DNA from: an uncultured Gammaproteobacteria bacterium
Lineage (GTDB): Bacteria; Patescibacteriota; Patescibacteriia; UBA11705; JABHMO01
Direction of reading: 5' to 3'
Assembly: GCA_964434235.1 (NCBI GenBank)
Contig: CAYSUN010000001.1
Location: 18,574 to 82,573, forward strand
Length of the DNA: 64,000 nt
In this document: positions 3,451 through 59,921 of the stretch, in pieces
Position numbering within the stretch: position 1 is the first letter of the stretch
How the letters are laid out: every line of letters starts with the position of its first letter
Position numbers and translations under genes: made by a program
The notes under the pieces: generated by a model
The model's database searches: none
What the model saw: the letters and a program-made list of their open reading frames with translations, nothing else
Told to the model about the DNA's origin: nothing

Positions 3451-5013
3451 ATGACTACAAATAAAAAAACAATTCCAGTACTAAAACAAATAGAACTACC
3501 AGAAAACGTAGCCAATGCTTTGTATAGCGAATTCGGTTATTCTTTAAATAATCAAATTAATAATGAACATGAATTAACTGTTATTCAAAGTTTTTCACTT
3601 GTGAAATTGCAAAATGATTTGTTTTTCAAAAAAGTTGAAGTGTCTGATATTGTACAAGAAATAATTGAGTGTTTGGGTATAAATAAAATCAAGGCAAAAA
3701 AAATTGCTTTAGATGTTTTGGGTAAAAAAATGTTATTACTTGATACTAAGTGGTTTGAGGGCGAAGTAAGTAAAAAAATAACCGAGCTTGGTGGAAATGT
3801 CAAAGATTATAAAGAAATCACTAATAAGTATATTGAAGAGGTTGTCCAAGAAACATTTTATCGTGAATTGTCAGAACAAAAAGAAAAACAAGCTGAAGAG
3901 GCGGAAAAATTAAGTCTTGTGGAAGAGATTGAAGCAGAGGCAGCGGTAGTTAAAGATCCTGAAGGAGAGAAAAAAGCAGCGATCGAAATATTTAGTAATA
4001 AGCTCAAAGATTTGTTGTATGTTAATGATTATGTGTTGAAAATTGAATTAAATATTAGATTGATTACGTTGCTTTTGCAAGAAATGGATGAAGGTGAATT
4101 AAAATCTTTTCATAGCAACTTGTTAAAAGCGATAAAAGAAAATCAAGAATTGATTACTGAACAAAAGATTAATTTAAAAGGCGAATTAGTCGAGCCAACT
4201 GTGGCTAATTGGGTCAAAAATTTTATTCGTGAAGTTGGTTTGGAGGGATCTCAAGTAAACTCATTGAAAAAAGCTAAATATTTAAGTAGCGCTGATAATA
4301 TTCAAGGTTTAAATGAAAACGAGAAAAGAGCAGTTGGTAATTTGTTTTTCCTTTATACTGCCCTAGAAACTTTTTACATTTTGGTGGAAAAATCTGGCAT
4401 TGATGATGTTCTGATACTGCAGTTAACTCCAGAAGAACAACAAGAGTTGAAGCAAGATGTGAAAAAAGCTGAAGAAGAAGATGACAAACAGTCAAAAACA
4501 AAATTAAATGAAGCTGGTGAATCAAAACCTGTGGATATTATGCAGTTGTATTTAGGTAGAGCTGAAGATAGAGAAAAAATCGACACAATTAAACAGCAAT
4601 TATCAATAGATACTCGTCGAGAATACGATAAAGTGGCTGATTACTTGAATGAAAATTTAAAGTCTAGATTTAAATTAAATATTATTGCGGCTATTGAGCT
4701 TTTGGCAGAAATTGGGTCGCTTGATGATTTACTTGCTCACGATGAAAGATATCAAGCGTATATGTACGGATTTTTTAAGCGTAATAATTTACAAGGTGAA
4801 GAAATCGAGTTCAAAAAAAATCCAGTGCAAGCTAAGTACGTTCAATATTTCTTAATGTTTGTATTTATGGAAAGACTTGGAATGAATAATGACAAAGCTG
4901 CTAGATTGGCTGCTAATGTTTCTCAAATATTTATGGCTCAAGGTGTTAGTCAATATGCTCAATTAGCGTACCTTGATTTGAATGATCATCAATTTAAATG
5001 GAGTGATTTATGA
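3451..5013 (+). CDS. hypothetical protein (acidic, coiled-coil-rich) of the T4SS-like operon
   Basis: 520-aa ORF 12 bp downstream of the VirB6-like gene; no motif recognised. Confidence 0.5.
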   Translation: MTTNKKTIPVLKQIELPENVANALYSEFGYSLNNQINNEHELTVIQSFSLVKLQNDLFFKKVEVSDIVQEIIECLGINKIKAKKIALDVLGKKMLLLDTKWFEGEVSKKITELGGNVKDYKEITNKYIEEVVQETFYRELSEQKEKQAEEAEKLSLVEEIEAEAAVVKDPEGEKKAAIEIFSNKLKDLLYVNDYVLKIELNIRLITLLLQEMDEGELKSFHSNLLKAIKENQELITEQKINLKGELVEPTVANWVKNFIREVGLEGSQVNSLKKAKYLSSADNIQGLNENEKRAVGNLFFLYTALETFYILVEKSGIDDVLILQLTPEEQQELKQDVKKAEEEDDKQSKTKLNEAGESKPVDIMQLYLGRAEDREKIDTIKQQLSIDTRREYDKVADYLNENLKSRFKLNIIAAIELLAEIGSLDDLLAHDERYQAYMYGFFKRNNLQGEEIEFKKNPVQAKYVQYFLMFVFMERLGMNNDKAARLAANVSQIFMAQGVSQYAQLAYLDLNDHQFKWSDL

Positions 5014-6230
5014 TATCTAATTTACAAGATGGCTATGTCTTGGTCAAAGATAAGGATGGAGAACTGAAATATTACAAAGAGGGAAAATTCTTCAGTATTG
5101 CAGAAATAGAAAAACAAAGACAAATAGCTTTACAAAAAAATACTAGTCCGAAAGAAAAAGTAGAACTTAAACCTGCTTATAGTTTTGATACTGTTAAACG
5201 TTCGGTTCAAGTTAAACAACCAGATCAAGTGAAGCAATCAGTTCAAGTTAGGCAACTGCCTGAAGATATAAGAAAAGAATTAAGAAAAATTGGTCCAGAA
5301 ATAGAAATCCCTAAATCGCACAAAAAACCTATTTTTCCGAGTAAATTGAAACCCTTGGATCTTGAACCAGAAGAGTTGAAACCGCACAGTGATTTTCATG
5401 AAAGAAGAAATCAAGATCAAGAATTGGTGCAAAAAAAAGTTGACGAAGTGATTGAAAGATTGAAAATTAAATTTAGTGATTCAAGTATAGAAAAAAGATT
5501 TAGAAATATTCTTCTAACTTATTTTCGTGGTATTCGTAAAGACAAAGAATTAGTCTATGTGCTTGGTTTGCCTAAAATAAGTGGTGGCATGGAATTGGAT
5601 GACACGAAGATTAAGATTATTTTGTCAGTTATTAACCAGCATGTGGAAGAATTAGAAAAAGATAGAAGACATTTGGCCAGTAAACCGTTGGCTGATGATA
5701 TTCAAGCGGTTGCTGATATGGAGCATAGATTGGCTCCACCACCACCAGCGATTATTCAAGATAATTCAAAGAATAATCAAGTGGAAAAAAATAGATTTCA
5801 GGCTAGGACTATGCCTAAGCCAGCTATTCAGCGTCCAACGCCAGTTAGTTTGAGTGCTAAAAGACCAGATAGACCGACAATTACAGATATAAAAAGAAGA
5901 CGTTTAATTGGGCCAGTCGAAGAACTTGAAATGATGAATATAGAAAATTTAAGAAGATTGGGAGAGAATGAACATGAAATTATGGAAGAAGTTTTGGAAA
6001 AAATTCAGATTTTAGCAGAGCAATCTTTATTAAAAAAGATTGAAGGTATTAATGCGTGGAAAAGTTCAGCTATCTATAAACTTTATTTGCAAATGACCTA
6101 TGAAGCTATTGTGAATAAGCGAAGTATTGCTGATATTATTGAACAACGGCAATTGAAAAATCAAGAAACTTTAACTTTAAGTGAATATGAAATGTTAGGA
6201 AATATAAATTCTAAATTGAATCTAGCCTAA
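5010..6230 (+). CDS. hypothetical protein with Pro-rich linker, T4SS-like operon
   Basis: ATGA start/stop overlap with the upstream gene (translational coupling); contains PPPPA and repeated VKQSVQV motifs. Confidence 0.5.
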   Translation: MISNLQDGYVLVKDKDGELKYYKEGKFFSIAEIEKQRQIALQKNTSPKEKVELKPAYSFDTVKRSVQVKQPDQVKQSVQVRQLPEDIRKELRKIGPEIEIPKSHKKPIFPSKLKPLDLEPEELKPHSDFHERRNQDQELVQKKVDEVIERLKIKFSDSSIEKRFRNILLTYFRGIRKDKELVYVLGLPKISGGMELDDTKIKIILSVINQHVEELEKDRRHLASKPLADDIQAVADMEHRLAPPPPAIIQDNSKNNQVEKNRFQARTMPKPAIQRPTPVSLSAKRPDRPTITDIKRRRLIGPVEELEMMNIENLRRLGENEHEIMEEVLEKIQILAEQSLLKKIEGINAWKSSAIYKLYLQMTYEAIVNKRSIADIIEQRQLKNQETLTLSEYEMLGNINSKLNLA

Positions 6231-6231
6231 T

Positions 6232-6690
6232 ATGCAACAATTTTTAGTCCCACAATTTATTGACGTTGAAGACAAAATCATCGGTCCTATTACCACAAGA
6301 CAGTTTGTGGAAGTTTTGGCGGGTGTTTTGTTTACTTTTATTTTTTATAAACTTTTAGCTTTTACATATTTTATTTTTGCAGCAATAATTATTTTGCCTT
6401 CAACTGGAATTATTGCTTTTGCAAAAGTTAGTGGACGGCCAATTCATTTTTTCTTGTTAAACTTTTTGCAAACTAGTAAAAGGCCAGCTCTTCGAGTTTG
6501 GAATCGGGCAGCCTATGTTAAGCAAGTTCAAGAAATAAAAAGTGAAATTAAGGAAAAGCCAAAGCCCCAGATTGTTAAAAATGTAATTTCCGGTTCAAGG
6601 TTAAGAGACGTTTCTTTGATTGTTAATACTGGTGGCGTTTATGAGTCGCATGAACCTGTTGTTGATGATAAATTAATGGCTAATAAATAA
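6232..6690 (+). CDS. PrgI/VirB3-like small membrane protein
   Basis: N-terminus FIDVEDKIIGPITTRQFVEVLAGVLF followed by two TM helices resembles the PrgI-family (Gram-positive VirB3) signature; immediately precedes the VirB4 genes, as PrgI precedes PrgJ. Confidence 0.5.
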   Translation: MQQFLVPQFIDVEDKIIGPITTRQFVEVLAGVLFTFIFYKLLAFTYFIFAAIIILPSTGIIAFAKVSGRPIHFFLLNFLQTSKRPALRVWNRAAYVKQVQEIKSEIKEKPKPQIVKNVISGSRLRDVSLIVNTGGVYESHEPVVDDKLMANK

Positions 6691-6724
6691 ATTTATATAA
6701 GTTAACATAAGATTATCAAGAAAT

Positions 6725-7393
6725 ATGGCTACAAAAAGCAGAATAACAACATCAACACAACTTTTTTTGGATATTGCAGAAATAAAAAATAATACTGTAA
6801 TAATGAAAGATGGAACACTTCGAGCAGTTTTAATGGTTTCAAGTGTCAATTTTGCCCTTAAATCTGAAGATGAGCAAGAAGCTTTGGTTTCTTCTTATGT
6901 AACCTTTTTGAATTATTTAGATTTCCCATTACAAATAGTAATTCAATCCAGGAAATTGGATATTGATAACTATTTAAAGAGAATAGAAGTTGCAGAAAAA
7001 GATTTAACTAATGAATTGCTTAAAAAACAAATAGTTGATTATAAAAATTATATTAATGAATTGGTTGAACTTGGTGATATTATGACTAAACATTTTTTTG
7101 TTGTTGTGCCGTACAGTGTTTTGGAAAGCAAGAAAAATGGATTTTTTGATAAAGTAGGTGCAGTTTTCACTCCGGCAAGAGTAATTCGTCTTAAAACTGA
7201 TAAATTTGAAAAATATTTACATGATTTAAATCAAAGAGTTGAGCATGTTTCTTCTAATATTACTTCACTTGGCATTACAGCAGTTCGATTGGATACCCAA
7301 AGTTTAATAGAGCTTTATTATAATGTTTATAATCCTGTTATGGCCAAGAGCCAAAAATTAGTAGATATTGATGAGCTAAGGGTAGAAAGATAA
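6725..7393 (+). CDS. VirB4/TraC-family N-terminal domain, encoded as a separate ORF
   Basis: FLDIAEIKNNTVIMKDGTLRAVLMVSSVNFALKSEDEQEALVSSYVTFLNYLDFPLQIVIQS matches the conserved N-terminal region of CagE/TrbE/VirB4-type ATPases; ends with TAATAA, 33 nt before the ATPase ORF. Confidence 0.5.
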   Translation: MATKSRITTSTQLFLDIAEIKNNTVIMKDGTLRAVLMVSSVNFALKSEDEQEALVSSYVTFLNYLDFPLQIVIQSRKLDIDNYLKRIEVAEKDLTNELLKKQIVDYKNYINELVELGDIMTKHFFVVVPYSVLESKKNGFFDKVGAVFTPARVIRLKTDKFEKYLHDLNQRVEHVSSNITSLGITAVRLDTQSLIELYYNVYNPVMAKSQKLVDIDELRVER

Positions 7394-7426: not shown

Positions 7427-9334
7427 ATGTTTAAACCCAATGATGTCAAGAAAAAACCAGTTTCTTCTGAGATACCAATTCCTAAATTAGAAATACTTAA
7501 CGAAACTGCTTCTATTAAAAATGAGGAAGTAAAAGCTTCAAAACAAAAAGAAGTTTTGGAACAAGAAAAAACGTATCGTAAGGGAATAACTTCGGTTTTG
7601 GATATAGTTGCTCCGGCTGCGTTTGAAGTAAATCCTGATCATGTTCGAATTGGCGGACTTTTTGCTAGAACTCTTTTTGTCATGACTTATCCAAGATATA
7701 TTAACGTTGGTTGGTTTTCTCCAGTTATAAACTATAACGCAACTTTGGATATTAGCATGTTTTTTTATCCAATTGAGGCTGGTGTAGTTTTGAAACAATT
7801 AAAAAATAAAGTTGGTATTTTAACAGCCCAGTTAACTTCAGATTCAGAAAAAGGAGCTCCTCGTGATCCACTTAGAGAAACAGCCCTTCAAGATATTGAG
7901 CAACTTCGAGATGATATTACTCAGGGTACTGAAAAGTTTTTTCAATATGCGTTATATGTAACTTTGTATGAAAAAACTATTAGTGAGTTGGATGTTTTAA
8001 CTGAAGACGTTGAAACTGTACTGGGAACAAGGTCAATAATTTCTAAACGGGTATTTTATCAAGCAGAGCAAGGCTTTAATTCAACAATTCCTATTTCTAA
8101 TGATGAATTAATGATAACTGCTAATCTTAATTCTTCCCCAATTGCTGCTTCATTCCCATTTATGTCCTCGGAGCTTACTTCTGATGATGGAGTTTTATTT
8201 GGTATTAATCGACATAATAACAGTTTAATTTTGTTCGATCGATTTTCTTTGCAAAATGCTAATGCCTGTGTGTTCGCTACTTCTGGAGCTGGTAAAAGTT
8301 ATACTATAAAACTGGAAATTTTGCGGAGTATGATGCTTGGAACAGATGTGATTATTATTGATCCAGAAAGAGAATATAAAAATTTGAATGACGCGGTTGG
8401 TGGAACTTATGTAAATATTTCCTTGAATTCTGATAGTAAAATTAATCCTTTTGATTTACCTCGAAAAATGGGTGATATGTCGGCGGCTGATGTTATCCGA
8501 AGTGCAGTCATTACTTTGAAAGGTTTAATGCGAATTATGCTTGGAAAAATGACTTTTCAAGAAGATTCTATTATGGATAGAGCTTTAATTGAAACTTATG
8601 CTAAAAAAGATATTACTGGTGAATCTGATCTAACCACAATCGAACCACCAATTATGCAGGATTTGTATGATGTTCTTGATGGAATGGATGGTGGAGCTGA
8701 TTTAGCTTTACGTTTGAAAAAATATACTTCGGGAACATTTTCTGGTTTATTTAATTCACCGACTAATGTAGACATGGCCAATCAATTAGTTTGTTTTAGT
8801 GTGCGTGACTTGGAAGATGAACTTCGACCAATGGCAATTTATAACATTGTTAATTATATTTGGAATGTAGTTCGATCGGAAGTAAAAAAGAGAATTTTGG
8901 TAATTGATGAAGCTTGGTGGTTATTGCAACATGAAGATTCAGCAAAATTTATTCACGCTTTAGTAAAAAGATGTCGTAAATATTATTTGGGAGTTACAAC
9001 TATTACACAGGATGTAAATGATTTTCTTTTGTCTCAATATGGTCAAGCGATTGTAACAAATTCAGCTTTGAAAATTTTGTTAAAACAAGCTCCTTCAGCT
9101 ATGGATTTGATTCAAAAAACTTTTCAATTAACTGAAGGTGAAAAATATTTACTTTTAGAATGTAATGTTGGTGAAGGAATTTTCTTTGCTGGTAGTCGTC
9201 ATGCTGCGATGAAAGTTGTGGCTTCTCCGCTTGAAGATAGAATGATTACAACTGATCCTCGACAGTTGTTAGCACAGGAAAAACAGAGAGAAGAAGAAGA
9301 GGCTAAGGAAGCTGAAAGAGAAAATACAGTTTGA
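7427..9334 (+). CDS. virB4: VirB4-like type IV secretion ATPase (central and C-terminal ATPase part)
   Basis: Walker A FATSGAGKSYT; Walker B ILVIDEAWWLL (the DEAW motif typical of VirB4/TraC); N-terminal region with the PRYINVGWFSPVIN..LDISMFFYPI motif seen in Gram-positive VirB4 (TcpF/PrgJ-like). Confidence 0.8.
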   Translation: MFKPNDVKKKPVSSEIPIPKLEILNETASIKNEEVKASKQKEVLEQEKTYRKGITSVLDIVAPAAFEVNPDHVRIGGLFARTLFVMTYPRYINVGWFSPVINYNATLDISMFFYPIEAGVVLKQLKNKVGILTAQLTSDSEKGAPRDPLRETALQDIEQLRDDITQGTEKFFQYALYVTLYEKTISELDVLTEDVETVLGTRSIISKRVFYQAEQGFNSTIPISNDELMITANLNSSPIAASFPFMSSELTSDDGVLFGINRHNNSLILFDRFSLQNANACVFATSGAGKSYTIKLEILRSMMLGTDVIIIDPEREYKNLNDAVGGTYVNISLNSDSKINPFDLPRKMGDMSAADVIRSAVITLKGLMRIMLGKMTFQEDSIMDRALIETYAKKDITGESDLTTIEPPIMQDLYDVLDGMDGGADLALRLKKYTSGTFSGLFNSPTNVDMANQLVCFSVRDLEDELRPMAIYNIVNYIWNVVRSEVKKRILVIDEAWWLLQHEDSAKFIHALVKRCRKYYLGVTTITQDVNDFLLSQYGQAIVTNSALKILLKQAPSAMDLIQKTFQLTEGEKYLLLECNVGEGIFFAGSRHAAMKVVASPLEDRMITTDPRQLLAQEKQREEEEAKEAERENTV

Positions 9335-9344
9335 AAACAAAAAA

Positions 9345-9982
9345 ACACTTAATCACTAAAACAAGAAATCAATAAAACATAAAAACAAGAAAACAAGGAA
9401 AAGAAAGATTCAAGTAACAAGCAAAACAGAACACGGAACACAAAACACGGAACATTAATCATAGAACATAGATCATAGAACAAACACTTAAGATGGTTTA
9501 GCACTGCCAACTCTTACCGCATCCCTTTAGGGTGCGTAGAACTTAAAACAAGGTTAAAAAGGCAGTAAAACCACTCCCTACCTGTCTATCGGTTTACATG
9601 CCGGAGGTATGCAGGCAGGCGTAATAAACACTTAAGCTGGTTTATTGCTTACTGTTTAACATTTAATGTTTAATATTTATTTACTTAATACTTAATCATA
9701 GAACATAGAATATAGATCATAGAGCATCAAATCAATAAATCATTTAAACACTTAATCACTAAAACAAGAAGTCAAGGAAAAGAAAGATCCAAGTAACAAG
9801 AAAAATTTAATACTTACTACCTGCCTGCCGGTTTACGTGCCGGAGGTGTGCAGGCAGGCTTAACACTTACTTTTTACTTTTAACTTTTAATTTTTAACTT
9901 TTTCAATTTACTGTTTATTTACTTAACACTTAATACTTAACACTTAACACTTACTTTTAACTTTTAACTTGTAACTTTTAAT
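9345..9982. repeat. tandem intergenic repeat block: two copies of a ~55-80 bp unit, each followed by a GC-rich hairpin, plus ACTTAA/CTTTTAA-type micro-repeats
   Basis: Unit ACACTTAATCACTAAAACAAGAA..GGAAAAGAAAGATYCAAGTAACAAG at 9345-9421 and 9748-9800; hairpin CCTGCCTGCCGGTTTACRTGCCGGAGGTRTGCAGGCAGG at ~9577-9619 and 9830-9858. Confidence 0.8.
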
Positions 9983-10561
9983 ATGGAACAAAGAAAAAAA
10001 ATTATATTAATCATTGTCGTTGGTGTTTTGATTATAGCGGGAATTATAACTTGGTTTGTAATTTCTGAAAAAAAAGCTAATTCAACATCAACGGAAACTG
10101 ATACTGTTGCTACTCTTTCGGGTAAACCAGTTGATGAAAAAAAAGCAATTGTGGCAGTAGCACCAACTCAAAAAGAAAAAGTGGAAGTTTCAGTTAAATC
10201 AGTTGTTACAACTTTTGTTGAGAGATTTGGAAGTTTTTCCAATCATGCTAATTTCTTTTCAGTCGAAGATATTGTACCAATGATGACAAGTTCTATGGCT
10301 AGTTGGGTACAAAATACTTATTTGCCAACATTAAGAAGAGAGTATGATCCACAAGGTTTTTATTATAGTGTACAAACAACTGCTCCTGTTGTGAGAATTT
10401 TGAAAGAAGAAGGTAATTATATGGAGATAATGGTAGAAACCCAAAGAGTTGAAGATAGAGAAGGACAAAAACAAAATTTTAATCAAGCTATTAAAATAGA
10501 TTTAGTTAAAAGTGGTGAGGAGTGGCTAGTTGATGGAGCATTTTGGCAAAAACAAGAATAA
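9983..10561 (+). CDS. hypothetical membrane-anchored protein
   Basis: N-terminal TM helix (ILIIVVGVLIIAGIITWFVI) followed by a soluble domain. Confidence 0.5.
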   Translation: MEQRKKIILIIVVGVLIIAGIITWFVISEKKANSTSTETDTVATLSGKPVDEKKAIVAVAPTQKEKVEVSVKSVVTTFVERFGSFSNHANFFSVEDIVPMMTSSMASWVQNTYLPTLRREYDPQGFYYSVQTTAPVVRILKEEGNYMEIMVETQRVEDREGQKQNFNQAIKIDLVKSGEEWLVDGAFWQKQE

Positions 10562-11258
10562 ACTAAAACGGCTATTCGAAAAAGTACTCAGTTATATTTT
10601 CCCAATTGAGTGTGTTAGCTGTCAAAAAGAGGGGGAGTATATTTGCTCCGCCTGTTTTGCTCAAATAAAACTGATTGAAAACTTTAGTTGTTTTATATGC
10701 AATCAAGGATCATTTGCCAAAGGTATTTGTCCCAAGTGTGAAGAAACCACTAGCATAGATCAAATAATTGTGGCTACAACTTATCAAGATAATATTGTTG
10801 GTAAGCTGGTTGAACAATTTAAGTACAATTATTTAGAAGATACCAAATATCTACTTAGTCGAGTCTTGATAAAACAAATTGAACAGAAAGAATTAACTAA
10901 TGTTTTGCGTAATAAAGTTTTAGTACCAGTGCCTTTGCACAAAAAAAGATTAGCGGAAAGAGGGTTTAATCAAGCGGAAGAATTAGCTAAATTATTAGCA
11001 GTTAAGTTTGATTCTCAGGTTAATACTACAATTGTGAGGAGAGTTGCTAACACAAAACAACAAGCAAAATTGAACAGAAAACAACGTTTGCAAAATCTTA
11101 TAAATGCTTTTAGAATAGATAGTGAAGGCAGTTGGCCTGAAGAAGTAATTCTCATAGACGATGTTTTAACTACGGGTACAACATTTACTGAGTTATGTAA
11201 ATGTCTTAAGAAAAATGGTGTTAAAAAAGTTGTTTGTATTGCTATTTGTCATGGATAA
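10530..11258 (+). CDS. comFC: ComF-family protein (phosphoribosyltransferase-type, ComFC-like)
   Basis: N-terminal Cys cluster (CVSCQKEGEYICSAC, CFICN, CPKCE) and C-terminal PRTase motif VILIDDVLTTGTT; true start may be an internal Met because the ORF overlaps the upstream gene. Confidence 0.7.
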   Translation: MMEHFGKNKNKLKRLFEKVLSYIFPIECVSCQKEGEYICSACFAQIKLIENFSCFICNQGSFAKGICPKCEETTSIDQIIVATTYQDNIVGKLVEQFKYNYLEDTKYLLSRVLIKQIEQKELTNVLRNKVLVPVPLHKKRLAERGFNQAEELAKLLAVKFDSQVNTTIVRRVANTKQQAKLNRKQRLQNLINAFRIDSEGSWPEEVILIDDVLTTGTTFTELCKCLKKNGVKKVVCIAICHG

Positions 11259-11262
11259 TAAT

Positions 11263-12372
11263 ATGGAAAAAAATCAAAAAAAAGTAAAAATTTTATTAAG
11301 CGGAGGAGGTACAATTGGTTCAGTCAGTCCGCTAATTGCTATAAAGCAAGAATTAGATAAACAGCAAATCCAAGCTGAGTATCTTTGGATTGGGACGGAA
11401 AACGGCATAGAAAAAGATATTGTTAGTAAACAGAATATTGAATTTAAATCTATAAATTCAGGTAAGTTAAGAAGATATTTCTCAGTTAAAAATTTTTTAG
11501 CACCGTGGCATACTTTTGTTGGTATTATCCAAGCTTTGAGAATTATAAATAAATTTAAACCAGATATAATTTTAACTGCTGGAAGTTTTGTTTGTGTGCC
11601 AGTGGCTATTGCTGGTTGGTTATCTAGAAAAATAGTTGTTGTTCATCAGCAAGATTTAAAAATAGGTTTGGCTAACAAATTGATGGTGCCTTTTGCTAAG
11701 CAAATAACTGTGACATTTGAAAAGTCAATTAAGGATTATAAAGCTAAGAAAGTAGTTTGGACTGGTAATCCTGTTCGGCAAGAACTTTTTTCTGGTGATA
11801 TTGAGCAGGGGCGTGCTATGTTCAATTTAGAAGCTGAATTACCAACATTATTAGTTATTGGTGGCAGCTTAGGTTCAGAAATAATAAATAAAACAGTTTT
11901 TTCTAGTGTGCCTGAACTAATTAAGACAATGCAAATCATTCATATTACAGGCAAAGGTCAAGTGATTGAATGGGTAGATAAAGAAAAATTTGGAACTAAT
12001 GTTACGAGATATCATTCTCAAGAATATCTTTATGATGAATTGGTTCATGCTTATGCAGTAGCTGATTTGGTTGTTTGTCGAGCGGGTATGTCTACGATGA
12101 CAGAGTTGTCAGCCTTGAACAAACCGATGGTTGTTATCCCGATTCCAGATAATCAACAAGAAGAAAATGCCCAATTTTTTGATAGTAAAAATGCAATCAT
12201 TTTGCTAGAACAAAAATCTTTAACTGAAGATCAGTTTATTACCATTGTGCAAGGTTTATTTAATAATCCAAATAGTTTAGCTCGATTGAAAAATAATTTA
12301 AAAAGTGTAATGTTGCCAGATGCCAATATTCGATATTCACAGCTGATTAAGGAATTGTTAAAAATAAATTAA
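11263..12372 (+). CDS. murG: MurG-like GT28 glycosyltransferase (UDP-GlcNAc:lipid I transferase)
   Basis: N-terminal KILLSGGGTIGSVSPLIAI (the GGGTGGH..P-type motif) and C-terminal GGSLGSEIIN; start placed at the ATG (MEKNQ) just after the comF stop, whereas the ORF track starts at 11215. Confidence 0.75.
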   Translation: MEKNQKKVKILLSGGGTIGSVSPLIAIKQELDKQQIQAEYLWIGTENGIEKDIVSKQNIEFKSINSGKLRRYFSVKNFLAPWHTFVGIIQALRIINKFKPDIILTAGSFVCVPVAIAGWLSRKIVVVHQQDLKIGLANKLMVPFAKQITVTFEKSIKDYKAKKVVWTGNPVRQELFSGDIEQGRAMFNLEAELPTLLVIGGSLGSEIINKTVFSSVPELIKTMQIIHITGKGQVIEWVDKEKFGTNVTRYHSQEYLYDELVHAYAVADLVVCRAGMSTMTELSALNKPMVVIPIPDNQQEENAQFFDSKNAIILLEQKSLTEDQFITIVQGLFNNPNSLARLKNNLKSVMLPDANIRYSQLIKELLKIN

Positions 12373-36699: not shown

Positions 36700-37012
36700 T
36701 AGATCGAAATTACATGAAAAATATTAATATCTAAAATTAACAGATATTATTTTGAAATACGGTCTTTGTTTTTGTATTTTCTGTTAATATTGTATAATAA
36801 TTATACTTTAGCGTCAAAAGCAAAAGTGGGTAAATACACAAGAAATCAAAAAACCAAGAAAACAAGAAAGCAAGAAAGTATGAAAGCAAATACTTAGCCT
36901 TTGTAAAGTATCTTAAGCTACCCTTTGTTTCTTAGTTTCTTATTTCTTTATTTCTTTATTTCTTTTTAACTCACTATTCATTACTTATTTACTTAACACT
37001 TAACTTAACTCT
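36700..37012. repeat. divergent promoter region rich in CAAGAAA/TTTCTTG and TACTTAACACTTAAC word repeats
   Basis: Same repeat vocabulary as the 9.3-10.0 kb block. Confidence 0.6.
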
Positions 37013-38125: not shown

Positions 38126-38228
38126 AAAGTAAAGAAACAAACAGTGTTAAGTATTAAGTGTTAAGTATTAAGTATTAAGTAAATTTGTAATATTCGTAGA
38201 TTCGTAGCTAATTCGTAATTTGTAAACT

Positions 38229-47918: not shown

Positions 47919-48269
47919 ATGCAGACATATGATTTAACTGAAAGAATGTTTAGGTTTGCCAGAGATATTCGTTGTTTAGTAAATTCCTTACCAAAAAAGA
48001 CCACAAATTTTGAAGATGGACGTCAAGTTGTTCGATCTTCTGGCTCTGTTGGCGCGAATTATATAGAAGCGTCAGAACCATTGGGATTCAAAGATGAATT
48101 GCACAAGCTGAAAATTTCAAGGAAAGAAGTTAAAGAGACGATTTATTGGTTGAAGTTGATTATGTCTCAAAATAATATTGAATTACTGACGGATATTTCT
48201 AAGCTAATTGATGAAGCAACGCAAATATTAAAAATTTTATCAACTATTATTAAAAAGTTACAAGACTAA
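47919..48269 (+). CDS. four-helix-bundle protein (23S rRNA intervening-sequence protein family)
   Basis: FRFARDIRCLVNSLPKK...VRSSGSVGANYIEA...EVKETIYWLKL is characteristic of the TIGR02436-type family. Confidence 0.65.
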   Translation: MQTYDLTERMFRFARDIRCLVNSLPKKTTNFEDGRQVVRSSGSVGANYIEASEPLGFKDELHKLKISRKEVKETIYWLKLIMSQNNIELLTDISKLIDEATQILKILSTIIKKLQD

Positions 48270-49100: not shown

Positions 49101-49365
49101 AGTGTTGAGTGAAAAAAAGTTAAAAGGCTTGCCCTGAACTTAACGTCTTATAGCGTTATAGTTCGGGGTAAAAGTTAAAAGTAAGTGTTAAGCCTGCCTG
49201 CCGGCAGGCAGGTATTAAGTAATAAATTTTTCTTGTTACTCGTTACTTGAATCCTTCTTTTCCTTGTTTTCTTGTTTTTATGTTTTATTGATTTCTTGTT
49301 TTAGTGGTTAAGTGTTAAAATGATTTCTTGATTTGTTGTTTTCTTGTTTTCTTGATTAAAAATGT
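49101..49365. repeat. inverted copy of the 9.3-10.0 kb repeat unit plus the collapsed palindrome CCTGCCTGCCGGCAGGCAGG
   Basis: 49232-49315 is nearly exactly the reverse complement of 9345-9421; palindrome at 49193-49212. Confidence 0.8.
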
Positions 49366-57126: not shown

Positions 57127-59145
57127 ATGAATATAACTGAATCGAAAAATCGTTTGGAGAAATTAAAAGATCAGCTTCGAGAGACTGATCACGCTTATTA
57201 TACTTTGGATAAGCCGATTATGTCTGATTCAGCAAGAGATAGTTTGAAAGATGAAATTGAAAAAATCGAGAAACAGTTTCCAAATTTAATTACTTCAGAT
57301 TCACCAACTCAGAGAATCGGTGGTCGAGCTTTGGGTCGATTCAAAAAAGTTAAACATGAAATTCCTAAATATTCTTTAGATGATGTTTTTAGTTATGAAG
57401 AAGTTCGCGAATTTGATGAACGAGTAAAAAGATTTTTGAAAATTCCGATTAACTCAGACCTAGAATATACTTGCGAATTGAAAATTGATGGTTTGAATAT
57501 GTCTTTTCATTATAAAGATGGTTTATTTGAACGAGCAGTTACTCGAGGTGATGGTGTGCTTGGCGAGGACGTTTCTCATACTGTTAAGACGATTAAAAGT
57601 TTACCTTTGAAATTAAATAAAAATGTTGATATTGAACTTGGTGGTGAAGTTTATATGCCAACCAAAAGTTTTGAAAAGTTAAACAAAAAAGGCCCAATTC
57701 AATTTGCTAATCCGAGAAATGCGGCCGCTGGTACGGTGCGCCAATTAGATCCAATGGTGGCTGCTTCTCGAGATTTAGATATTTTTTGTTGGGCTATCTA
57801 TAAGTTAAAAGTTAAAAGTGAAAAGTTAAAAGTAAATACTCAGGTTGAAATGCTTGAAAAAATGAAAGAGCTTGGATTTAAAGTTAATCCAGAATACAAA
57901 AAAGTAAATAATATTGAAGAAGCAATTAAATTCTGTGAAAGTTGGCAAGACAAAAGAGCTAAACTTCCTTATGAAATTGATGGAATTGCGATCAAGGTAA
58001 ATCGAATTGATTGGCAAGAACGATTAGGCCGAGCATCAAAATATGTTCGCTGGGCTACAGCTTATAAATTTCCAGCCGAAGAAGCGACTTCTGTAATTGA
58101 AAATATTGTTTGGCAAGTTGGTCGAACTGGCGCCTTGACTCCAGTTGCTCATTTAACGCCAGTTAGTTTAGCTGGGTCGATTGTCAGTCGGGCAACTTTG
58201 CATAATATTGATGAATTAAGAGAAAAAGATATTAGAATAGGCGACACAGTAATTTTGCATAAAGCTGGAGATATTATTCCAGAAATTATTAAACCATTAC
58301 TCAAATTAAGAACTGGAAAACAAAAAAAAGTGGAAGCACCAAAAAATTGTCCGATTTGTCAGGCGAAAGTTGAAAGGATGGATGGTGAGTCAGCAATTCG
58401 TTGTACAAATAAAAATTGTTTTGCTCAAGATCAAGAAAGATTAATTCATTTTGTTTCGCGTAAAGGTTTTGATATTGATGGTTTTGGAGAAAAAATTGTT
58501 GAACAATTAATGCTGGAAAAGTTGGTTACAAATTTTTGTGATATTTTCGAACTTAAAAAAGGTGACTTGCAAGTGCTAGATCGTTTTGCGGAAAAATCAG
58601 CTGAAAATTTAGTTCAAGCTATTGAAAAAAGCAAATCTGTTTTGTTAAGTAAATTAATTTTTGCTTTAGGCATTCGTTATGTAGGCGAAGAAAATGCTAG
58701 CTTACTAGCCAAACAATATTCCGATCGAACAATTTCTATGTTTTTAAAAAACATTAAGCAAGCAAAAGTTACTGATTTGGAAGAAATTGAAGGTGTTGGT
58801 AAAATTGTTGCTCAAGCAGTTTTTGATTATTTTCACAATGAAGATAATTTACAAAAACTATTAAAACTTGAAGAACTTGGTGTTGTTTTGAAAAGAGTAG
58901 AAGTTTCACAAGTAAAATCCTCAGTCTTTGGAAAAACTTTTGTTTTAACTGGTAGTTTAGTCAGTTTATCCAGAGATGAAGCCAAGGCTTTGATTAAATT
59001 AGCTGGAGGTAAAGTTAGCTCGACTGTGAGTGCTAAAACTGATTACCTTGTTGTTGGTGATGAACCGGGTTCTAAATACAAAAAAGCAGTAGAATTAAAA
59101 GTGAAAATACTTGAAGAAAAAGAATTCATGAGTTTGATTAAATAA
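57127..59145 (+). CDS. ligA: NAD-dependent DNA ligase LigA
   Basis: Adenylation motif CELKIDGL, OB fold, Zn finger CPICQAKVERMDGESAIRCTNKNC, HhH, C-terminal BRCT (GKTFVLTGSL..); contains an in-frame repeat-derived insert at ~57795-57840. Confidence 0.9.
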   Translation: MNITESKNRLEKLKDQLRETDHAYYTLDKPIMSDSARDSLKDEIEKIEKQFPNLITSDSPTQRIGGRALGRFKKVKHEIPKYSLDDVFSYEEVREFDERVKRFLKIPINSDLEYTCELKIDGLNMSFHYKDGLFERAVTRGDGVLGEDVSHTVKTIKSLPLKLNKNVDIELGGEVYMPTKSFEKLNKKGPIQFANPRNAAAGTVRQLDPMVAASRDLDIFCWAIYKLKVKSEKLKVNTQVEMLEKMKELGFKVNPEYKKVNNIEEAIKFCESWQDKRAKLPYEIDGIAIKVNRIDWQERLGRASKYVRWATAYKFPAEEATSVIENIVWQVGRTGALTPVAHLTPVSLAGSIVSRATLHNIDELREKDIRIGDTVILHKAGDIIPEIIKPLLKLRTGKQKKVEAPKNCPICQAKVERMDGESAIRCTNKNCFAQDQERLIHFVSRKGFDIDGFGEKIVEQLMLEKLVTNFCDIFELKKGDLQVLDRFAEKSAENLVQAIEKSKSVLLSKLIFALGIRYVGEENASLLAKQYSDRTISMFLKNIKQAKVTDLEEIEGVGKIVAQAVFDYFHNEDNLQKLLKLEELGVVLKRVEVSQVKSSVFGKTFVLTGSLVSLSRDEAKALIKLAGGKVSSTVSAKTDYLVVGDEPGSKYKKAVELKVKILEEKEFMSLIK

Positions 59146-59764: not shown

Positions 59765-59921
59765 TGTAATTTCACAGTTTATTGTTTATTGCTTATTTAT
59801 TTTTTACTCACGACCCGCCTACCGGCCGGCTCACAACTTAATTCTTACCTACTTAACACTTAATACTTAATACTTATTTACTCACCATTAACACGTTAAA
59901 TATGGACGCAGGTATGTTATT

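Follow-up and report, generated by a model that had tools for sequence, protein, structure and literature searches.

Why should a chromosome whose genes are typically separated by a few dozen nucleotides carry 648 nucleotides (nt) of non-coding DNA between two of them? The question is posed by positions 9335-9982 of the 64-kb stretch of DNA analyzed here, which at its full length is called the window. The window is a chromosome segment with 33% GC, and the closest homologs of its proteins are titled Candidatus Falkowbacteria (Patescibacteria). Its median spacer is 33.5 nt; the spacer in question ranks second in length, and is the longest that holds no RNA gene. It lies between a VirB4/TraC-like ATPase gene at 7427-9334 (Pfam P-loop_TraG/AAA_10), with PrgI-like and TraC-like genes further upstream, and a 192-residue open reading frame (ORF) at 9983-10561 without assigned function, followed by genes for a ComF-like phosphoribosyltransferase, MurG, and DivIC. 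The initial annotation, which was made from the sequence alone and remarked correctly on the unusual length of this interval, described a tandem repeat block with paired GC-rich hairpins and suggested a terminator or attenuator, a structured RNA, an element resembling a miniature inverted-repeat transposable element (MITE), or an origin of transfer (oriT) or regulatory region of the adjacent type IV secretion system (T4SS). Our analysis indicates that the block is probably a lineage-specific nest of selfish, non-autonomous, non-coding repeat modules, the core of which is a hairpin element resembling repetitive extragenic palindromic (REP) sequences. The hairpin is a very widespread family, recurring almost letter for letter in hundreds of unrelated bacteria and phages of environmental origin.

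The block contains two A-rich units, two 39-nt GC-rich hairpins, and arrays of 7-8-nt words, and a module would consist of a hairpin element preceded by an A-rich and followed by a T-rich word array. On the forward strand, module 1 begins with a full-length A-rich arm (the A-unit) at 9344-9421, composed of 8-nt words (AAAACAAG-like; Tandem Repeats Finder (TRF) period 8/24), followed by the long-form hairpin copy 1 (CCTGTCTATCGG...CAGGCAGG) at 9581-9619 and by a T-rich arm of GTTTAAT/TACTTAA heptamers at 9621-9696 (repeat family D5, TRF). Module 2, on the same strand, has its A-rich arm at 9728-9811, where alignment places the A-unit itself at 9746-9805 with an internal deletion of 24 nt (three words), hairpin copy 2 (CCTGCCTGCCGG...CAGGCAGG) at 9820-9858, and a T-rich arm of ACTTTTA/ACTTAAC heptamers at 9859-9982 (TRF period 7, 16 copies) that reaches the start codon of the next gene. 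Further heptamer arrays occupy 9426-9482 (forward strand; ACGGAAC, then CATAGAA/CATAGAT; TRF periods 7 and 14) and are repeated as a second CATAGAA array at 9692-9727 (forward strand; family D4, 89%). The two A-rich units and the CATAGAA and ACTTTTA/ACTTAAC arrays had thus been recognized correctly, and both hairpins are real, except that the second starts at 9820, 10 nt before the position 9830 first given for it, and that the consensus as first written does not hold for the left arm of copy 1. The repeats are present, but the block is built as a mosaic of modules and is no simple tandem array, because three of its segments recur at an offset of 237-239 nt while the A-unit recurs at about 379-403 nt, and because a 90-nt segment at 9483-9572 is unique. 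This segment takes the place held by the A-unit in the second module.

The hairpins stand out from their surroundings, with a GC content of 56% and 69% against 33% in the window, as had been noted before. A covariance model of the long form (R1) matches copy 1 at 9578-9622 (55.9 bits, E = 1.3e-12) and copy 2 at 9817-9861 (56.5 bits, E = 9.5e-13), and the 30-nt hairpin core, which has two matches in the window, has none in 100 shuffles. Copy 1 is composed of an outer stem CCTGTCTA/CAGGCAGG, a 5′ bulge TCGGTTTA, an inner stem CATGCC/GGTATG, and a GGA loop. Copy 2, with a predicted fold of -22 kcal/mol, has the outer stem CCTGCCTG/CAGGCAGG, the bulge CCGGTTTA, the inner stem CGTGCC/GGTGTG with three G·T pairs, and the same loop; relative to copy 1 it carries two transitions, each of which turns a Watson-Crick pair into G·T on the forward strand. 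Both copies are preceded by CTAC, a feature not general across the family. The module as a whole forms no long hairpin: the fold of 9728-9982 has z = +0.3, and the arms are opposite in composition and unpaired.

The window carries three copies of the hairpin in its 64 kb. The third module (A-unit, hairpin, and T-arm) lies on the reverse strand at 49169-49335, between a prepilin peptidase gene and a pilin-like gene, and has the same junctions as the modules of the block; the A-unit at 9344-9421 is 97% identical over 75 nt to 49316-49242 on that strand. Its hairpin, inverted relative to both neighboring genes, is a short form, the perfect 20-nt palindrome CCTGCCTGCCGGCAGGCAGG at 49193-49212 (R1 match, 28.5 bits), which equals the long form minus the 19 nt that the hairpins of the block carry at the center of the palindrome. 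A fourth module (A-arm, hairpin, and T-arm) is found at a different locus with unrelated genes adjoining, at 1591-1796 of L214 (contig Ga0265594_1016970), with 83% identity over 213 nt to 9738-9939. The metagenome of L214 is also the source of L301, a contig of the same species.

Comparison with relatives bears directly on the age of the block. In three syntenic relatives with the same gene order (L001, L004, and L005; VirB4 identity 88%, 84%, and 82%), the spacer after VirB4 is AT-rich and only 27, 22, and 23 nt long, respectively. Similarly, the spacer with copy 3 has 265 nt in the window versus 1 nt in the relatives L302-L304, and model R1 finds no hairpin in ~110 kb of DNA from syntenic relatives (six loci). 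The short spacers and the lack of a hairpin in the relatives mark the block as a lineage-specific insertion or expansion, by this comparison apparently a recent one. The arms of the modules look neutral: the five single-base differences (at 9647, 9782, 9797, 9806, and 9890) between the window and three other assemblies of the same population (L305-L307) are all located in the A/T-rich arms, with none in the hairpins and none in 1042 nt of adjacent coding sequence.

The hairpin itself extends far beyond this lineage. Using an exact pattern built to match all three window copies, we scanned one genome per GTDB species (596 Gb) and found the 20-nt core, CCTGCCTRCCGGCAGGCAGG, at no fewer than 120 loci, that is, at least 120. 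The two halves abut without a gap (TACCTGCCTRCCGGCAGGCAGGC) in 86 of the 123 short-form matches listed and are separated by one base in 23 of them; by our own calculation, ~0.14-0.35 zero-gap matches would be expected by chance. The titles of the records, among the matches listed, include many Patescibacteria classes, Bacteroidota, Omnitrophota, Planctomycetota, and WOR-3, as well as Bdellovibrionales and metagenome-assembled genomes (MAGs) of Desulfobacterota type and of Gammaproteobacteria, and the Bacteroidota carriers include cultured isolates of Olivibacter, Algoriphagus, Mesonia, Aestuariivivens, and Marinoscillum. Identical 20-23-mers occur in contigs titled as several phyla and in viral contigs with GC contents from 33 to 70%. 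In IMG/VR, 47 stretches of viral contigs contain the 20-mer, compared with no match for a non-palindromic control of the same composition and three for another palindrome, likewise of that composition. The long form, CCTGCCTG-CCGGTTTA-C[C/A/G]TGCC-GNA-GGCAT(G)G-CAGGCAGG, was found at 120 or more loci (at least 125 matches) in a metagenome scan; it has no match among PLSDB plasmids or INPHARED phages, and neither it nor the A-unit pattern has any in IMG/VR. An archaeal or cross-domain distribution was considered and dropped: the contigs concerned, L083 (titled Nanoarchaeia) and L034 (titled Nitrosopumilus), carry bacterial-type genes (MraY signature and PG_binding_1; DUF6090) and are probably mis-binned.

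Searches for a known counterpart were negative. Rfam 15 reports only three tRNAs in the window at the gathering score and nothing within 9335-9982 at E up to 10, the sole match in the scanned region 9250-10050 being CRISPR-DR34 at 10031-10050 (E = 0.4), outside the block. The hairpins of 17 further loci have no Rfam match either, ARAGORN finds no tRNA-like gene in the block, and a literature search covering the literal sequences, REP, GIY-YIG, and the candidate phyla radiation returned no description of the element, which hence appears to be undescribed.

The long form follows a two-helix model with an 8-bp outer stem, an 8-nt 5′ bulge, a 6-bp inner stem, and a 3-nt loop, in which 86.5% of the cells are paired across 58 distinct copies. 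The middle base of the loop is free (A 35, T 31, G 13, and C 10 for the commonest form, among the matches listed). Pairing is maintained through substitutions, some of them compensatory: pair 21-34 is A-U (15), G-C (2), or G·U (2), and a C at position 21 is accompanied by an additional G, with the U bulged out; pair 23-32 is G-C (42) or G·U (13), with A-U in one copy found by the model only (L224). This conservation of pairing supports a hairpin formed by a single strand, which to judge from the pairing may be RNA or single-stranded DNA alike. Strand-specific evidence for RNA from the G·U pairs was considered and judged weak, as the search patterns fixed one arm. In short, the repeat units recur elsewhere and the pairing of the hairpin is conserved, the two observations on which the initial annotation had let its interpretation depend.

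The members of the family behave as small dispersed DNA elements, nearly all of them between genes and in either orientation. Among the matches listed, 115 of 119 non-redundant long-form copies are intergenic; relative to the flanking ORFs, 23 are co-directional, 27 anti-directional, 16 in convergent, and 10 in divergent contexts. The random orientation and the intergenic location argue against a cis-acting RNA linked to particular genes and in favor of dispersed DNA. At least one copy was pasted precisely and without doubling of its target. A local repeat in a Moraniibacteriota MAG provides both a filled site (L085, ...cccccgttcG[20-mer]TAgtggggg...) and an empty one (L024, ...cccccgttcGTAgtggggg...), which differ by a precise 20-nt insertion, with no target duplication, in the loop of a host hairpin. 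Copies are also nested at the center of other copies (L054 and L078), and L271 has a tandem duplication of the inner 15-mer. Perfect host inverted repeats of at least 7 bp flank 5.3% of short-form copies versus 0.7% of control positions. A rule that the element always sits at hairpin tips was rejected, the enrichment being real but confined to ~5-14% of copies. TA was considered as a preferred target; the pattern of the genome scan forced TA, and in unbiased metagenome flanks TA is enriched only about twofold.

RNA genes are a further class of site. The D-loop of a tRNA-Phe-like 5′ half in L125 (6768-6850) holds two tandem 20-mers, and the D-loops of class II tRNA 5′ halves carry the element in L038, L044, L084, and L106. 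In L157 (2239-2330) it occupies the variable arm of a tRNA-Met that remains recognizable to ARAGORN and to Rfam; another viral contig, L129 (~8570-8660), likewise has the 20-mer at the variable-arm position of tRNA-Met. An extra hairpin thus seems to be tolerated where tRNAs accept extra arms. L124 has the palindrome, together with an array of ACGAATT words, at 6230-6340, within a gene for 23S rRNA (Rfam LSU at 4929-6474, reverse strand); the same contig has a group I intron at 6612-7033, a few hundred bases from the palindrome. Taken together, copies recur where an additional hairpin does no harm: AT-rich spacers, the centers of other copies, hairpin tips, D- and variable loops of tRNAs, and rRNA expansion sites.

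The flanks of the element are usually arrays of 7-8-nt words that are specific to the genome, such as TACGAAT, TAACCTC, and ATACCTC, or ACTTAAC, CATAGAA, and AACAAGAA in the window. Word arrays may be where the palindrome inserts, or they may arise in part through its activity. In high-GC viral contigs (L128/L166, L130, L136, L149, and L156), the palindrome has direct repeats of a local word of 7-14 nt on either side, such as tctcgtctctcgct in L136.

Which enzyme might move such an element? We clustered 2440 ORFs located within 3 kb of ~290 copies. Housekeeping and phage structural genes aside, the sole recurrent neighbor is a small GIY-YIG protein of ~80-100 residues, found at 13 loci at a median distance of 170 nt; no recurrent HUH- or RAYT-like family occurs within the same 3 kb. 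Six loci (L038, L084, L106, L125, L168, and L242; seven copies, two of them in L084) have the hairpin on the strand of the GIY-YIG ORF and 18-63 nt ahead of its start codon, enclosed in a pseudo 5′ part of the tRNA gene found behind the cassette. By a rough estimate, ~0.03 such juxtapositions would be expected by chance. The order of these cassettes is a pseudo 5′ tRNA part with the palindrome (mostly after the GGTA of the D-loop), a GIY-YIG ORF of 79-117 residues, and an intact tRNA gene. They are located at 700-1400 in L084, where the cassette is tandemly duplicated, ~900-1210 in L038, ~640-960 in L106, 6760-7180 in L125, ~490-820 in L168, and 3100-3530 in L242. This organization suggests a free-standing homing cassette with tRNA genes as its target. 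The relatives L001 and L005 also carry GIY-YIG genes, with no hairpin near them.

These observations can be combined into a model. The active core of the module would be the hairpin, either as the bare 20-nt palindrome or, as in the block, in its ~40-nt long form with the inner stem and G-N-A loop. We infer that it moves in trans by way of a single-stranded DNA hairpin recognized by an enzyme encoded elsewhere, as in REP/RAYT or IS200/IS605 systems, and the small GIY-YIG nuclease that adjoins a subset of copies is the sole candidate for this enzyme. This genome would hold at least four modules, two of which landed or were duplicated between the VirB4-like gene and its neighbor, and later diverged through slippage of the word arrays and through insertions and deletions. 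An effect on the host, for example by a stable RNA hairpin in the operon transcript, would be secondary. More tentatively, and with more doubt than trust at present, the 20-nt palindrome and its ~40-nt long form may represent a new class of ultra-small mobile DNA that spans phyla and phages, inserts without duplication into spacers, hairpin tips, tRNA, and rRNA genes, and is moved in trans by a small, widespread nuclease. The GIY-YIG cassettes with the palindrome at their 5′ end are the lead candidate for the source of that nuclease, and the species-specific 7-8-nt word arrays might be by-products of palindrome activity.

The facts of the locus can be read in other ways. The hairpins could act in cis as RNA, namely as terminators, attenuators, or 3′-end protectors that part the T4SS-like operon from the cell-envelope genes downstream, much as REP hairpins of Escherichia coli stabilize upstream mRNA. 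In keeping with this, both long-form hairpins are in sense orientation to the flanking genes, with A-rich DNA 5′ and T-rich DNA 3′ of each; the differences between copies 1 and 2 retain pairing only as G·U on the forward strand; and in the family, convergent contexts slightly exceed divergent ones (16 versus 10, among the matches listed). However, neither stem is followed by a U-tract, no terminator-like site is detected in 9200-10100, the relatives make do with their 22-27-nt spacers, copy 3 is inverted relative to both of its neighbors, and the sense preference disappears in the family at large, 119 members of which show no orientation preference. We therefore consider a cis-acting role unlikely, and a terminator or attenuator is not supported. 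An explanation that we hold to be about as unlikely keeps the GIY-YIG proteins but reverses the roles: the hairpin would be the recognition or cleavage site, or a repair footprint, of these nucleases, and solitary hairpins would be relics of homing with no mobility of their own. The exclusive recurrence of GIY-YIG genes as neighbors, the position of the hairpin in the six loci with cassettes, and the presence of such genes in L001 and L005 fit this proposal. Against it, ~95% of hairpin loci have no GIY-YIG ORF within 3 kb, the window has none, and the genes of L001 and L005 lack a hairpin nearby; moreover, we know of no biochemical link between GIY-YIG proteins and this hairpin.

Another candidate is a small structured RNA encoded by the block, for instance the predicted three-way fold at 9483-9622 together with hairpin 1. 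The forward-strand fold of 9483-9625 is more stable than all 200 shuffles (z = -2.87), which is the observation in its favor; yet Rfam offers no family at E up to 10, the forward strand has no promoter-like site, the segment is absent from the relatives, and its unique part has no homolog among 299 fetched loci save for a 19-mer in three viral contigs with different flanks. Such an RNA strikes us as quite improbable. Still less credible is an oriT or other DNA site of the adjacent T4SS, which is suggested by the position beside VirB4/PrgI-like genes and by the inverted repeats, and by nothing else. The region is absent from L001, L004, and L005, which have the same T4SS genes, and this excludes a conserved T4SS regulatory site or oriT; in addition, Pfam detects no relaxase domain in the flanking ORFs, the module also occurs beside pilus genes (copy 3) and beside an unrelated ORF (L214), and the hairpin is found in hundreds of unrelated contexts. 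Scarcely any weight can likewise be given to the possibility that the block is an assembly artefact of low-complexity reads. It is true that contigs of other assemblies break within it, but these contigs begin inside repeats, as expected for short-read assembly of repeated DNA, and three independent ENA assemblies (L305-L307) reproduce 9348-11024, 9648-10884, and 9827-12192 without gaps at 99.7-99.96% identity, so that 9348-9982 and the DNA beyond are covered at ≥99.7%. For the spacer of copy 3, two further same-species assemblies have the identical sequence, which makes three in all. An exact match to the VirB4-like protein is not on record, and those to the prepilin peptidase (PilD) and the 192-residue ORF come from short contigs only.

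The reading of the block as a nest of selfish modules built around a REP-like hairpin is itself burdened by several points. The near-identity of the hairpin across distant phyla is unlike known REP families, and could stem instead from a binding protein held in common or from a conserved function in the host. Both the mobility of the hairpin and the enzyme that would mobilize it are things that we infer. For the bare 20-mer, the clean filled and empty sites amount to one pair. The 64-kb window yielded no gene for a transposase, RAYT, or GIY-YIG protein, with Pfam applied to 20 ORFs and tblastn with two GIY-YIG proteins giving nothing. The search patterns fixed most positions, and the conservation of the bulge CCGGTTTA and of the loop G and A is hence not independent evidence; covariation is modest relative to a shuffle control. 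Finally, both large scans give lower bounds (at least 120 loci each), which makes the copy numbers and distribution minimal, and the taxonomic labels of their matches are MAG titles.

Several other features of the window and of the fetched loci deserve mention. The unique segment at 9483-9572 (forward strand) is predicted to form a three-way fold that includes a hairpin CGCATCCC-TTTA-GGGTGCG. Its only counterpart among the 299 fetched loci is an exact 19-mer: the small hairpin CGCATCCCTTTAGGGTGCG, at 9518-9536 of the window, recurs in three viral contigs at L297 4769-4787, L298 2352-2370, and L299 346-364, where the next few bases are similar (GTAGTTGAAGG) and the wider flanks differ. This sharing may be due to chance, or CGCATCCCTTTAGGGTGCG may be another recurrent mini-hairpin. 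Folded as a whole, the block as RNA has z = -1.4. A-rich and T-rich arrays of 7-8-nt words of the same kinds are present at 36840-37010, 38140-38225, 57800-57836, and 59780-59905, in spacers and at one site within an ORF; they include ATTCGTA, the complement of the TACGAAT words that stand beside the palindrome in other phyla, and T-arm words are common to 38143-38184, 57802-57836, and 59850-59876. A possible decayed copy of the module, by sequence resemblance and without an R1 match, is located at 59816-59876 (forward strand), where a half-site CCCGCCTACCGG at 59816-59827, which may be a decayed hairpin, is followed by an array of TACTTAACACTTAATACTTAA. The window also contains a gene for a 116-residue '23S rRNA-intervening sequence protein' (PF05635) at 47919-48269, between the GAPDH and prepilin peptidase genes. 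Since the corresponding gap is 13-50 nt in L302-L304, this gene is another lineage-specific insertion.

Elsewhere, the surroundings of the hairpin are shared between organisms in two cases. In Flavobacteriaceae, including isolates (L031, L056, L061, L070, and L075), the context ...ttccaacttggtgtg[HP]ttgcaaa..ttaac..cgcaact..catagcc... (where HP stands for the palindrome) is common to several genera and has no Rfam match; as L070 is a contig of 817 nt, this context probably represents either an unannotated RNA or the end of a larger repeat. In L007, L117, L123, L197, and L215, the hairpin is flanked by another set of words, GAGATTGCTTCG... and ...CTCGCAATGAC, which is shared across phyla. In L123, from Falkowbacteria, an array of palindromes apparently lies in frame inside a methyltransferase-like ORF.

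For the annotation of this genome, the consequence is that the label of an oriT or T4SS regulator is removed from the block as wrong. A streamlined Patescibacteria genome with a median spacer of ~34 nt still tolerates bursts of selfish DNA, and the repeats break short-read assemblies at these points. More generally, a hairpin of 20-44 nt deserves attention when it is conserved almost literally across phyla and phages, is inserted into tRNA and rRNA genes, stands at the head of GIY-YIG cassettes, and is recorded neither in Rfam nor in the searchable literature. Provided that it is mobile, the hairpin would rank with the smallest mobile elements on record, would serve to trace DNA exchange between phyla, and would give access to the function of the small GIY-YIG proteins, which are very common; an immobile hairpin would have to owe its conservation to a shared function in hosts or phages.

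How does the element compare with known systems? With Rho-independent terminators, the hairpins of the block share a stable GC-rich stem-loop in a spacer 3′ of an operon, but they have no U-tract and no orientation bias, and are absent from orthologous sites. The initial comparison with MITEs holds as far as insertion polymorphism, a third copy on the opposite strand, and a dispersed family are concerned. Like the Correia elements of Neisseria, the hairpin is non-autonomous, intergenic, and polymorphic between relatives, and Correia elements and other MITEs can alter the expression of neighboring genes. The comparison fails, however, in that the hairpin has no terminal inverted repeats of a known insertion sequence and makes no target-site duplication (L085/L024), its core is far below MITE size, and the arms of the ~200-nt module do not pair. 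The GC clusters of yeast and other fungal mitochondria are short GC-rich palindromes in AT-rich spacers, polymorphic between relatives and sometimes tandem or nested, and they coexist with genes for homing endonucleases of the GIY-YIG and LAGLIDADG types; certain classes duplicate a short target, and to our knowledge the mechanism that mobilizes them is unsettled. The likeness extends to the palindromes in AT-rich spacers, the polymorphism, the nesting, and the association with GIY-YIG genes, whereas the clusters are organellar, lineage-specific, and without sequence similarity to the hairpin, the hosts of which are free-living or episymbiotic bacteria and phages. A GIY-YIG homing cassette as such does not account for the window, where no GIY-YIG ORF adjoins the hairpins, the association being confined to a subset elsewhere.

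Two families of bacterial palindromes come closer. The Rickettsia palindromic elements (RPEs) are palindromic repeats that land in RNA genes and, in frame, in protein genes (PMC3733652). The hairpin resembles them in its insertion into RNA genes and in the tolerance of the extra hairpin or peptide, but RPEs measure 100-150 nt and are limited to Rickettsia, whereas the hairpin has a core of 20-44 nt and crosses phyla, with L123 as its sole apparent in-frame case. REP/REPIN elements with their RAYT proteins share more: they are imperfect GC-rich palindromes of 20-40 nt, compared with a 20-nt core and a long form of 39-44 nt here, and like the hairpin they are multicopy, almost exclusively intergenic, found in either orientation, often clustered or nested, sometimes located within genes, and inserted without target duplication, presumably through the action of a single-stranded DNA hairpin (PMC3733652). 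One end of the REP palindrome, however, bears a conserved tetranucleotide, GTAG or CGTC (PMC3733652), which the hairpin family lacks, the flanks being variable in 58 distinct long-form copies and in the viral short-form copies. No RAYT gene is seen near ~290 copies or among the 20 window ORFs scanned with Pfam, and the long form differs by its large, conserved bulge on the 5′ side and by the G-N-A loop that caps its inner stem. Most REP families are confined to one species or genus, whereas the hairpin is near-identical across phyla. The element thus works most like REP/REPIN, yet fails both the GTAG/CGTC tag and the restriction to a species, and its cross-phylum near-identity together with the GIY-YIG/tRNA cassettes could set it apart from known REP-like elements.

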